Below are positions 40,597 through 60,290 of a DNA stretch of 64,000 bases, one piece after another. The position numbers were made by a program, and so were the translations under genes. Each line of letters begins with the position of its first letter. The stretch's first letter is position 1. This stretch comes from Escherichia coli (GTDB lineage Bacteria; Pseudomonadota; Gammaproteobacteria; Enterobacterales; Enterobacteriaceae). The notes beneath the pieces were generated by a model. The model worked only from the letters and a program-made list of their open reading frames with translations, did not search any database and had not been told where the DNA came from. Location of the stretch: assembly GCF_046105845.1 (NCBI RefSeq), contig NZ_CP151004.1. One strand, 5' to 3'.

Positions 40597-40694
40597 TGCC
40601 GGATGCGGCTAAAACGCCTTATCCGGCCTACAAATTCTACCAAATTCAATATATTGCAGAAATCATGTAGGCCTGATAAGCGTAGCGCATCAGG
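40597..40694. repeat. REP/BIME element (two inverted REP units)
   Basis: gccggatgcggctaaaacgccttatccggcctac and gtaggcctgataagcgtagcgcatcaggc between ysaA and avtA. Confidence 0.7.
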
Positions 40695-57181: not shown

Positions 57182-59251
57182 ATGTCTGAGAAAACTTTTC
57201 TGGTGGAAATCGGCACTGAAGAGCTGCCACCAAAAGCACTGCGCAGCCTGGCTGAGTCCTTTGCTGCGAACTTTACTGCGGAGCTGGATAACGCTGGCCT
57301 CGCACACGGCACCGTTCAATGGTTTGCTGCTCCGCGTCGTCTGGCGCTGAAAGTAGCTAACCTGGCGGAAGCGCAACCGGATCGTGAAATCGAAAAACGC
57401 GGCCCGGCGATTGCCCAGGCGTTCGACGCTGAAGGCAAACCGAGCAAAGCGGCAGAAGGTTGGGCGCGTGGTTGTGGTATTACCGTTGACCAGGCTGAGC
57501 GTCTGACTACCGATAAAGGCGAATGGCTGCTGTATCGCGCCCACGTGAAGGGCGAAAGCACCGAAGCTCTGCTGCCGAATATGGTTGCGACTTCGCTGGC
57601 GAAACTGCCGATCCCGAAACTGATGCGTTGGGGCGCAAGCGACGTGCACTTCGTGCGTCCGGTGCACACCGTGACCATGCTGCTGGGCGACAAAGTCATT
57701 CCGGCAACCATTCTGGGCATTCAGTCCGATCGCGTGATTCGCGGCCACCGCTTTATGGGCGAGCCGGAATTCACTATCGACAATGCCGATCAATACCCGG
57801 AAATTCTGCGTGAGCGCGGGAAAGTCATCGCCGATTACGAAGAACGTAAGGCGAAGATTAAAGCCGATGCCGAAGAAGCAGCGCGTAAGATTGGCGGTAA
57901 CGCTGACTTAAGCGAAAGCCTGTTGGAAGAAGTGGCTTCGCTGGTGGAATGGCCGGTTGTGCTGACCGCAAAATTCGAAGAGAAATTCCTCGCGGTGCCG
58001 TCTGAAGCGCTGGTTTACACCATGAAAGGTGACCAGAAATACTTCCCGGTGTATGCGAACGACGGCAAACTGCTGCCGAACTTTATCTTCGTTGCCAACA
58101 TCGAATCGAAAGATCCGCAGCAAATTATCTCTGGTAACGAGAAAGTCGTTCGTCCACGTCTGGCGGATGCCGAGTTCTTCTTCAACACCGACCGTAAAAA
58201 ACGTCTGGAAGATAACCTGCCGCGCCTGCAAACCGTGTTGTTCCAGCAACAGCTGGGTACACTGCGCGACAAAACTGACCGCATCCAGGCGCTGGCTGGC
58301 TGGATTGCTGAACAGATTGGCGCTGACGTTAACCACGCAACCCGTGCGGGCCTGCTGTCCAAGTGCGACCTGATGACCAACATGGTCTTCGAGTTCACCG
58401 ACACCCAGGGCGTTATGGGGATGCACTACGCGCGTCACGATGGCGAAGCGGAAGATGTTGCAGTGGCGCTGAACGAGCAGTATCAGCCGCGCTTTGCCGG
58501 TGATGACCTGCCGTCTAACCCGGTAGCCTGTGCGCTGGCGATTGCTGACAAGATGGATACTCTGGCGGGTATCTTCGGTATCGGCCAGCATCCGAAAGGC
58601 GACAAAGACCCGTTTGCGTTGCGTCGTGCCGCACTTGGCGTACTGCGTATTATCGTTGAGAAGAACCTCAACCTTGATCTGCAAACGCTGACCGAAGAAG
58701 CAGTGCGTCTGTATGGCGATAAGCTGACTAATGCCAACGTGGTTGATGATGTTATCGACTTTATGCTTGGTCGCTTCCGCGCCTGGTATCAGGACGAAGG
58801 TTACACCGTTGACACCATCCAGGCGGTACTGGCGCGTCGTCCGACGCGTCCGGCTGATTTCGATGCCCGTATGAAAGCGGTATCGCACTTCCGTACCCTG
58901 GAAGCAGCTGCAGCACTGGCGGCGGCGAACAAACGTGTATCCAACATTCTGGCGAAATCTGACGAAGTGCTGAGCGACCGCGTGAATGCCTCTACTCTGA
59001 AAGAGCCGGAAGAAATTAAACTGGCGATGCAGGTGGTTGTGCTGCGTGACAAGCTGGAGCCGTACTTTGCGGAAGGTCGTTACCAGGATGCACTGGTCGA
59101 ACTGGCTGAGCTGCGTGAACCGGTCGATGCTTTTTTCGATAAAGTGATGGTAATGGTTGATGACAAAGAATTGCGTATCAACCGTCTGACCATGCTGGAG
59201 AAACTGCGCGAACTGTTCCTGCGAGTTGCGGATATTTCGCTGTTACAGTAA
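57182..59251 (+). CDS. glyS: glycine--tRNA ligase beta subunit
   Basis: 689 aa [27 protein letters not shown]. Confidence 0.95.
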
Positions 59252-59269
59252 TAATGCCGTTATTAAATA

Positions 59270-59295
59270 GCCTGCCATCTGGCAGGCTTTTTTTA
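59270..59295 (+). terminator. rho-independent terminator of glyQS
   Basis: gcctgccatctggcaggc stem-loop followed by a T7 run. Confidence 0.75.
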
Positions 59296-59573
59296 TCGCT
59301 AAATAATACAGCAACCTTTAATAATCTTCTGATGAATAAAGATTATCTCATATATTAATTTTATGAGATTTTTTTAGGATTATATCAAGGAGAAGAAACG
59401 AACTTATTAAGCTAGAATAGCCACGGGTGCTTGAGACTGTTTGTCTCAGGTATTCACCGAAAGGCAGACAGAGAAAAGCCCCACCTGACTATAAATCAAA
59501 GTGAGGCCCCTCTATGCATAGACACCATAAGGTTAGCCTCTTACTCGTTGGAAATCAACACAGGAGGCTGGGA

Positions 59574-59726
59574 ATGCCGCAGAAATATAGATTACTTTCT
59601 TTAATAGTGATTTGTTTCACGCTTTTATTTTTCACCTGGATGATAAGAGATTCACTGTGTGAATTGCATATTAAACAGGAGAGTTATGAGCTGGCGGCGT
59701 TTTTAGCCTGCAAATTGAAAGAGTAA
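59574..59726 (+). CDS. hokA: Hok-family type I toxin (small membrane peptide)
   Basis: 50 aa MPQKYRLLSLIVICFTLLFFTWMIRDSLCELHIKQESYELAAFLACKLKE; overlapping upstream frame 59514.. corresponds to mok. Confidence 0.85.
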   Translation: MPQKYRLLSLIVICFTLLFFTWMIRDSLCELHIKQESYELAAFLACKLKE

Positions 59727-59857
59727 GCGTCTTCGGCGGGAAATTATTCCCGCCTTTCTTACGGTGTTGCGCATTCTCATTGCACCCAAATTTATTCTTC
59801 ACAAAAATAACACTAGATTCTATTACGCGATCGATTATTTATTTCCTGAAAAACAAA

Positions 59858-59888
59858 TAAAAAAATCCCCGCCAAATGGCAGGGATCT
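59858..59888 (-). terminator. rho-independent terminator of cspA
   Basis: Minus strand reads atccctgccatttggcgggga followed by T run, just downstream of the cspA stop. Confidence 0.55.
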
Positions 59889-59913
59889 TAGATTCTGTGC
59901 TTTTAAGCAGAGA

Positions 59914-60126
59914 TTACAGGCTGGTTACGTTGCCAGCTGCCGGGCCTTTAGCGCCGCTTTCGATGGTGAAGGACACTTTCTGACCTTCGTCCAGAGATTT
60001 GTAACCATCGTTCTGGATAGCAGAGAAGTGTACGAACACGTCTTTAGAGCCATCGTCAGGAGTGATGAAGCCGAAGCCTTTGTCAGCGTTGAACCATTTT
60101 ACGATACCAGTCATTTTACCGGACAT
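59914..60126 (-). CDS. cspA: major cold-shock protein
   Basis: 70 aa [37 protein letters not shown] with RNP1/RNP2 motifs. Confidence 0.95.
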
Positions 60127-60290
60127 AGTGTATTACCTTTAATAATTAAGTGTGCCTTTCGGCGATATGGCGTGCTTTACAGATTTTGAAGCGTTAAAGG
60201 AATGTGCACTACGAGGGGTATCAACGATAACTCTTGAAGAGGACTTGCCTTACTACACTGCTTTAATGGTCTGTACGTCAAACCGTTGAG
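60127..60290 (-). promoter_or_regulatory. cspA long 5-prime UTR region (cold-box / thermosensing leader)
   Basis: About 160 nt non-coding leader upstream of cspA; function from established knowledge, boundaries approximate. Confidence 0.5.

Follow-up and report, generated by a model that had tools for sequence, protein, structure and literature searches.

An IS-free and apparently complete hokA/mokA/sokA type I toxin-antitoxin locus between glyS and cspA of Escherichia coli

Introduction

The hok/mok/sok locus (parB) of plasmid R1 and its relatives on other IncF plasmids share with the chromosomal hokA locus described here the overall architecture, the order of elements, homologous promoters, the leader and the fold-back inhibition element (fbi). 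Post-segregational killing is a property of the R1 locus and is not known for chromosomal hokA. The antisense RNA Sok of R1 has a length of 64 nt. In the R1 system, trimming of the mRNA at its 3' end replaces the pairing of the translational activator (tac) with fbi by a pairing of tac with the upstream complementary box (ucb). For an R1-like rearrangement see also PMC9841398.

On the chromosome, hokC (gef)/mokC/sokC and the other hok paralogues belong to the same family as hokA, follow the same leader design and have repeatedly been hit by IS elements. hokC resides at another site (nhaA side) and its toxin and leader are divergent, with about 86% identity to hokA over a leader stretch of 45 bp. 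IS elements, point mutations or rearrangement are held to have inactivated the hok loci of strain K-12, and IS-free hok copies, hokA included, occur in other strains such as NRG857c (PMC7232551; PMC6733600). For hokA, both the IS inactivation in K-12 and the existence of intact alleles elsewhere are credited to Pedersen and Gerdes (1999) in the citing literature (PMC7232551; PMC6733600; bioRxiv 10.1101/2025.08.07.668861).

The hokA/mokA/sokA locus of E. coli C (Pedersen and Gerdes 1999, Mol Microbiol 32:1090) occupies the same glyS-hokA-cspA site with the same IS-free spacing of 322 bp as the locus under study; its elements are the same, and so is the tac-fbi fold predicted for its mRNA. Overexpression of the HokA coding sequence is toxic (bioRxiv 10.1101/2025.08.07.668861). 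According to the summary of the 1999 study in the same preprint, rifampicin did not activate the IS-free hokA of E. coli C, and the locus conferred no post-segregational killing. In the following, we analyse the corresponding locus in a stretch of 64,000 nucleotides from another E. coli chromosome (contig NZ_CP151004.1), hereafter called the window.

Results

The gene order in the window, glyQ-glyS-hokA-cspA-yiaG-yiaF-ghrB-yiaD, is that of K-12 and of all other records compared, and a hokA locus was found in all but one of 5,426 complete E. coli genomes (5,425). The upstream neighbour is glyS (57182-59251, plus strand), a 689-aa ORF for the glycine-tRNA ligase beta subunit; every matching E. 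coli record carries the glyS annotation. A terminator scan located the intrinsic terminator of glyS, a hairpin followed by a T-run, at 59269-59288 (plus strand). The stretch that separates this terminator from the hokA promoter contains, at 59347-59378 (plus strand), an inverted repeat rich in A and T (CTCATA...TATGAG) and followed by seven T residues; it may serve as a second, weak terminator that shields hokA from glyS read-through. Calculated from the ORF coordinates, 322 bp lie between the glyS stop codon (59251) and the hokA start codon (59574), in good agreement with the interval of about 320 bp given in a first-pass annotation made from the sequence alone.

The toxin gene hokA (59574-59726, plus strand) encodes 50 amino acids. 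The protein matched the Pfam family HOK_GEF (PF01848) over all 42 profile positions (E = 1.4e-21, 76.2 bits, cut-off 22) and the NCBIfam HokA equivalog NF007290 with 129.7 bits (cut-off 89). The mokA frame in the ORF list (59514-59726, plus strand) comprises 70 codons and forms an in-frame N-terminal extension of hokA with a common stop codon. The Mok of the R1-type locus is likewise an in-frame toxin extension of 70 codons, and the same arrangement was found in nine of the ten other alleles translated. Both genes, which the first-pass annotation had described as intact, proved to be so by the in-frame ORF and the family matches above the cut-offs.

Several features of the surroundings were recorded. 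The cspA thermoregulator/mRNA was matched over its full length at 59859-60287 on the minus strand (Rfam RF01766, 491 bits). The terminator hairpin of cspA, at 59862-59889, could act bidirectionally and is the sole strong hairpin downstream of the hokA fbi; no canonical terminator was found between fbi and this hairpin. An intact small ORF homologous to ysaE (23 aa, 59703-59774, minus strand) runs antisense to the 3' end of hokA and differs from K-12 YsaE in three residues (MRNTVRKAGIISRRRRLLFQFAG in the window, MRNAVSKAGIISRRRLLLFQFAG in K-12). Farther away, at 40632-40674 (plus strand), a match to the sRNA ES036 (CssrF) of Rfam barely exceeded the gathering score (38.9 bits versus 37.6). Over the 24 kb from 40001 to 64000, the window was at most 99.0% identical to any of the 5,426 complete RefSeq E. 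coli genomes; the best matches include phylogroup-D-like strains, e.g. PCN033.

The interval of 322 bp contains no transposase-sized ORF in the ORF list, as the first-pass annotation had noted, and a blastn search of the full 64 kb for IS150, IS1 and IS421 was negative. The leader is continuous from 59465 to 59575 and includes the hairpin of the mok start region, and neither the K-12-type junction nor that of a second interrupted allele, both described below, is present. One might suspect an assembly artefact, in which an IS copy was collapsed or skipped and the locus is in reality interrupted. Apart from the general difficulty of assembling repeats nothing speaks for this explanation, which is extremely improbable: the junction is identical or nearly identical to that of 2,800 independently assembled complete genomes, and a collapsed IS normally leaves IS ends or a contig break, while the window is devoid of IS150, IS1 and IS421 sequence. 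The observation of an intact locus is confirmed and is far more than chance. We consider it highly probable that the window carries an IS-free, structurally complete hokA/mokA/sokA type I toxin-antitoxin module between glyS and cspA, and that its allele is the presumably ancestral one.

An IS150 next to hokA in K-12, which the first-pass annotation had mentioned, is real. In the K-12 derivative XL1-Blue, an IS150 of 1,443 bp is located between glyS and hokA, with the transposase antisense to hokA, and MG1655-derived records showed the same split match to the window. K-12 and the window have the same hokA coding sequence, and the flanks are about 98% identical. These flanks match the window up to position 59502 and again from 59542; in K-12 the inverse IS150 takes the place of 59503-59541, in contrast to the window, in which the alignment detected neither an IS nor any other disruption. 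The stretch absent from K-12 consists of the GAGGC...GCCTC hairpin and one further base, and it includes the mok start, the Sok target, the Sok -10 hexamer and the predicted Sok start. The insertion also parts hokA from its promoter. The junctions of the K-12 element show no recognisable target duplication, and the left one contains one extra, unexplained T (1057-2500 in locus record L001 versus 59503-59541 in the window). No reconstruction derived the K-12 allele from a simple insertion through one contiguous deletion, since the extra T at the left junction was left over.

A second allele, found for instance in strain RIVM_C037134, has IS150 in the orientation of hokA at the trinucleotide AAG (59499-59501, plus strand), which is duplicated there (3 bp; junctions in locus records L002, L019 and L020) and represents an unoccupied target in the window. 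In the complete-genome database, a non-random sample of E. coli for which allele frequencies are descriptive only, the leader 59465-59575 was uninterrupted in 2,800 of 5,426 genomes (51.6%) and the K-12-type junction was present in 1,644 (30.3%). The second type together with rare others (IS1, truncated IS150) accounts for at most 977 genomes (18%), an upper bound obtained by subtraction (5421 - 2800 - 1644 = 977), the junction counts of the second hokA allele and of the hokC insertion contaminating each other because their leaders plus IS end match to about 86%. The IS-free hokA is an already known form, described in 1999 (Pedersen and Gerdes), and the majority state among complete E. coli genomes. 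The impression that it is unusual, implied by the first-pass annotation, did not hold in view of these frequencies and of the publication in 1999.

The IS-free state of the window could also be derived, if a former IS150 had excised precisely or an IS-free allele had replaced it by recombination. The second-type IS150 was found on three leader haplotypes, evidence of recombination in its vicinity or of repeated gain. The window, however, has a single AAG at 59499-59501, bears no footprint and contains the whole hairpin missing from K-12, and IS-free alleles are present in all sampled haplotypes and form the majority. A recombinational replacement would, moreover, be traceless and without functional consequence. 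We regard a derived state as very unlikely and retain the reading of an allele that is presumably ancestral.

The leader (59425-59576, plus strand) matched the Rfam model sok (RF01794) over the full model length with 119.3 bits (gathering score 59, E = 3e-28). Both promoters were placed by homology to the R1-type locus; in a generic sigma-70 promoter scan, both stayed below the threshold. The putative hokA/mokA promoter has the -10 hexamer TAGAAT (59413-59418, plus strand), 7 nt upstream of the presumed start and aligned with the -10 TATGAT of R1-type plasmid hok, and a poor -35 (GAGAAG). The predicted full-length mRNA extends from 59425 to 59790 (plus strand), with a 5' end placed by homology at the start of the Rfam sok model and an approximate 3' end just past fbi.

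On the minus strand, the putative sokA promoter (59530-59558) consists of the -35 hexamer TTGATT (59558-59553), a 17-nt spacer and the -10 hexamer TAACCT (59535-59530), position-for-position homologous to TTGCGC-17-TATCCT of the R1-type locus. The predicted SokA RNA (59470-59523, minus strand) is antisense to the Rfam sok match and, with these presumed ends, would comprise about 54 nt: a single-stranded 5' tail of 10 nt, a long hairpin and a U-rich end. Its fold of -22.3 kcal/mol (z = -3.75) displayed the 5' tail and the terminator hairpin. The mok region thus harbours, on sequence, a cis-encoded gene with its own promoter for a predicted Sok RNA, close to the place on the opposite strand, around 59480-59560, where the first-pass annotation had expected it; the promoter that this annotation had named as a check is identifiable.

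The mRNA begins with tac (59425-59436, plus strand; GGGTGCTTGAGA), which was recognised by its pairings in the folds and aligns with GGCGCTTGAGG of the R1-type locus. It is followed by ucb (59476-59482, plus strand; AAGCCCC), the predicted partner of tac after 3' trimming, of which AGCCCC is conserved in the R1-type alignment. The hairpin GAGGC...GCCTC (59503-59540, plus strand), delimited by the Rfam structure line, the fold of the shortened mRNA and the K-12 junctions, contains the Sok target and the mokA start codon, and the latter is antisense to the predicted 5' tail of Sok. The Shine-Dalgarno sequence of hokA (AGGAGG; 59562-59567, plus strand) was sequestered in all folds by pairing with the downstream complementary box (dcb; 59696-59713, plus strand), which lies inside hokA and also pairs with the hokA start region. 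Downstream of hokA, the terminator scan detected a GC-rich hairpin, GGCGGGAAATTATTCCCGCC, followed by TTTCTT (59735-59754, plus strand), of which CCCGCCTTT is conserved in R1-type hok; this hairpin may halt the trimming of the 3' end or terminate some of the transcripts. The last element, fbi (TCTCATTGCACCC; 59775-59787, plus strand), was identified in the folds and is complementary to tac.

Folding of the 366-nt RNA 59425-59790 yielded a minimum free energy (MFE) of -137 kcal/mol compared to -94 +/- 5.9 kcal/mol for shuffled sequences (z = -7.28). In the MFE as well as the centroid structures, 11 of the 12 tac bases paired with fbi at 59775-59787 for every 3' end tried that includes fbi, and the same pairing was predicted for the E. 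coli C allele. When the 3' end was cut at 59760, the predicted fold of 59425-59760 switched to the pairing of tac with ucb at 59476-59482 and the mok hairpin formed. The long-range pairing and its alternative, both found in predicted MFE folds, answer to the fold-back structure that the first-pass annotation had suggested to look for. Counting against this model, the hairpin plus TTTCTT at 59735-59760 resembles a terminator; if most transcripts stopped there, the mRNA would lack fbi.

An element-by-element alignment with the R1-type IncFII hok/sok locus covers the -10 hexamer, the 5' end, ucb, the mok hairpin, the -35 and -10 hexamers of Sok with their 17-nt spacer, the 3' hairpin and fbi, at a column identity of about 72% (DNA). 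The R1-type locus is plasmid-borne and that of the window chromosomal. The leader of the window is 18 nt shorter in the first stem-loop, and its predicted Sok of about 54 nt is shorter than R1 Sok. Compared to E. coli C, 17 differences were counted within the mRNA region. Six of them are clustered in the loop of the mok start and Sok target (59508-59521) and change Mok residues 2-3 from PE to HR. Others affect the Shine-Dalgarno sequence, which reads AGGGGG in E. coli C instead of the AGGAGG of the window (A/G at 59565), and the HokA residues E36 and K47 of the window, which are G36 and N47 in E. coli C.

Allelic variation was assessed in a set of 11 intact E. coli alleles. Between 59355 and 59934 the window has no private base change with respect to the 11 other alleles compared; HokA is the same protein as in K-12, and Mok the same as in strain HH97. 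None of the 11 intact alleles varies in the Sok promoter region (59522-59564). The predicted fold has 20 base pairs that vary among the alleles. Pairing is preserved throughout the set in 11 of these: in ten the change is one-sided (G-U/G-C/A-U) and in one it is double, from C:G to T:A. Several predicted pairs are broken in single alleles. This pattern gives weak but consistent support to selection on RNA structure, the covariation evidence within E. coli being thin owing to low divergence and several broken pairs.

Two divergent leader haplotypes were observed among IS-free E. coli. They are separated by six substitutions in 59508-59521, in the loop and stem of the Sok-target hairpin, differ at Mok residues 2-3 (HR or PE) and are about 94% identical over 111 bp, which is unusually divergent for intergenic DNA of E. 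coli. The ST131 allele (L007) is missing one A before the hokA start codon, homologous to 59573 (GGGAATG to GGGATG). This loss shifts mok out of frame, leaving a 29-codon ORF that ends inside hokA, and shortens the spacing between Shine-Dalgarno sequence and ATG. The same allele has a G to A change in fbi at 59782, which breaks one tac-fbi pair.

A query with the junction of the second hokA allele also matched further hok loci. IS150 was observed at the homologous leader position of three hok loci, namely hokA, hokC of strain LR4 and the plasmid-borne hok of pHZ13-NDM, in the same orientation each time (L002, 1562-3004; L016, 2547-3989; and L018, about 2229-3671, respectively). The insertion point lies one base before (T/C)GAGGCC, and the 3-bp target duplication reads AAG in hokA and ACC in both hokC and plasmid hok. 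The right end of IS150 adjoins the foot of the mok-start/Sok-target hairpin in all three loci. The junction in the LR4 hokC leader is ...CATCAACC|IS150|ACCCGAGGCC, that in the hok leader of pHZ13-NDM ...CAATTAACC|IS150|ACCCGAGGCC and that in the second hokA allele ...ATCAAAG|IS150|AAGTGAGGCC. As flanks and duplications differ among the three loci, the insertions are independent of each other. The IS150 of K-12 hokA lies in mirror orientation and ends one nucleotide beyond the opposite foot of the hairpin; its right end again faces the position of the hairpin. Downstream of hok, an IS421 (IS4 family, IS186-like) was noted in both LR4 hokC (L016, 4293-5093) and plasmid hok (L018, 4097-4472). These positions echo the IS186 elements downstream of hokC and hokE in K-12.

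Discussion

Every element of a hok/mok/sok system is present, intact and conserved in the window, and the alternative pairings of its mRNA appear in the predicted folds. The ends of the transcripts, their 3' processing, the coupling of translation and any phenotype are inferred from these elements as follows. A weak promoter with the -10 hexamer TAGAAT would give rise to an mRNA of about 365 nt that starts near 59425. In the full-length form tac would be paired with fbi, the mok start buried and the ribosome-binding site of hokA paired with dcb; such a locked mRNA would be neither translated nor bound by Sok. Slow trimming at the 3' end would take off fbi, upon which tac would pair with ucb and the hairpin with mok start and Sok target would form. 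A short, unstable SokA, transcribed from about 59523 to 59470 on the opposite strand, would then bind the leader and block translation of mok and of hokA, which is presumably coupled to it. Once Sok is lost, Mok and HokA would be made, and the small membrane toxin HokA would damage the inner membrane.

The locus might alternatively be intact in appearance only, a decayed or permanently silent relic from which HokA is never made, with or without Sok, for example due to a promoter that is too weak or an over-stabilised inhibitory pairing. This possibility deserves consideration, since the IS-free hokA of E. coli C, as far as the 1999 results are relayed in the preprint (bioRxiv 10.1101/2025.08.07.668861), showed neither killing nor activation by rifampicin. 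The -35 of hokA is poor and both promoters remained below the threshold of the generic scan. Furthermore, IS disruption is tolerated in nearly half of the E. coli genomes, which marks the locus as dispensable. Against a relic, however, divergent alleles have kept all regulatory elements and both ORFs, the Sok promoter is invariant and many of the substitutions preserve pairing, a pattern unexpected under neutrality. HokA is toxic on expression (bioRxiv 10.1101/2025.08.07.668861), and the Shine-Dalgarno sequence of the window is a perfect AGGAGG compared to AGGGGG in E. coli C. Given the 17 differences in the mRNA, including those in the Shine-Dalgarno sequence and in two HokA residues, the negative result obtained with E. 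coli C may or may not apply to the allele of the window. On balance we hold a silent relic to be the less probable reading, though one with some weight. The locus is best regarded as structurally intact; it is probably expressed, though under tight repression, and has no established role in physiology.

The suggestion of the first-pass annotation that an undisrupted locus may still be functional therefore stands in part: the elements are intact and HokA is toxic on overexpression, but the IS-free locus of E. coli C, the nearest case with experimental data, caused no post-segregational killing in the 1999 work as cited. Taken as a whole, the interpretation offered there is partly supported.

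The recurrence of IS150 next to the mok hairpin raises the question of targeted insertion. That the hok leader is a specific hot spot for IS150, with the window as its unoccupied form, is a tentative proposal whose chances we see as somewhat short of even. If IS150 recognises the sequence or structure of the leader, recurrent targeted insertion would explain the roughly 48% of disrupted hokA loci, instead of or besides selection against the toxin. The idea is probably not new and in part known already: Schneider in 2000 and Woods in 2006 reportedly found IS150 insertions in hokB/sokB in Lenski's long-term experiment. Our literature searches on hokA with IS150 and on hokB/sokB with IS150 returned nothing relevant.

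As a discovery the finding carries little weight, the IS-free hokA and the disruption by IS150 in K-12 having been known since 1999. Its use lies in annotation, since the strain possesses a complete hokA/mokA/sokA locus of which sokA and mokA are unlikely to be annotated automatically. With the IS-free form as the majority state, K-12 is an atypical reference for hokA. Whether chromosomal hok loci are lethal without Sok is a question still open (PMC6733600). The allele of the window combines the HokA protein of K-12 with a perfect Shine-Dalgarno sequence and an intact leader, and would thus be a reasonable template for testing the lethality of a chromosomal hok upon removal of Sok.
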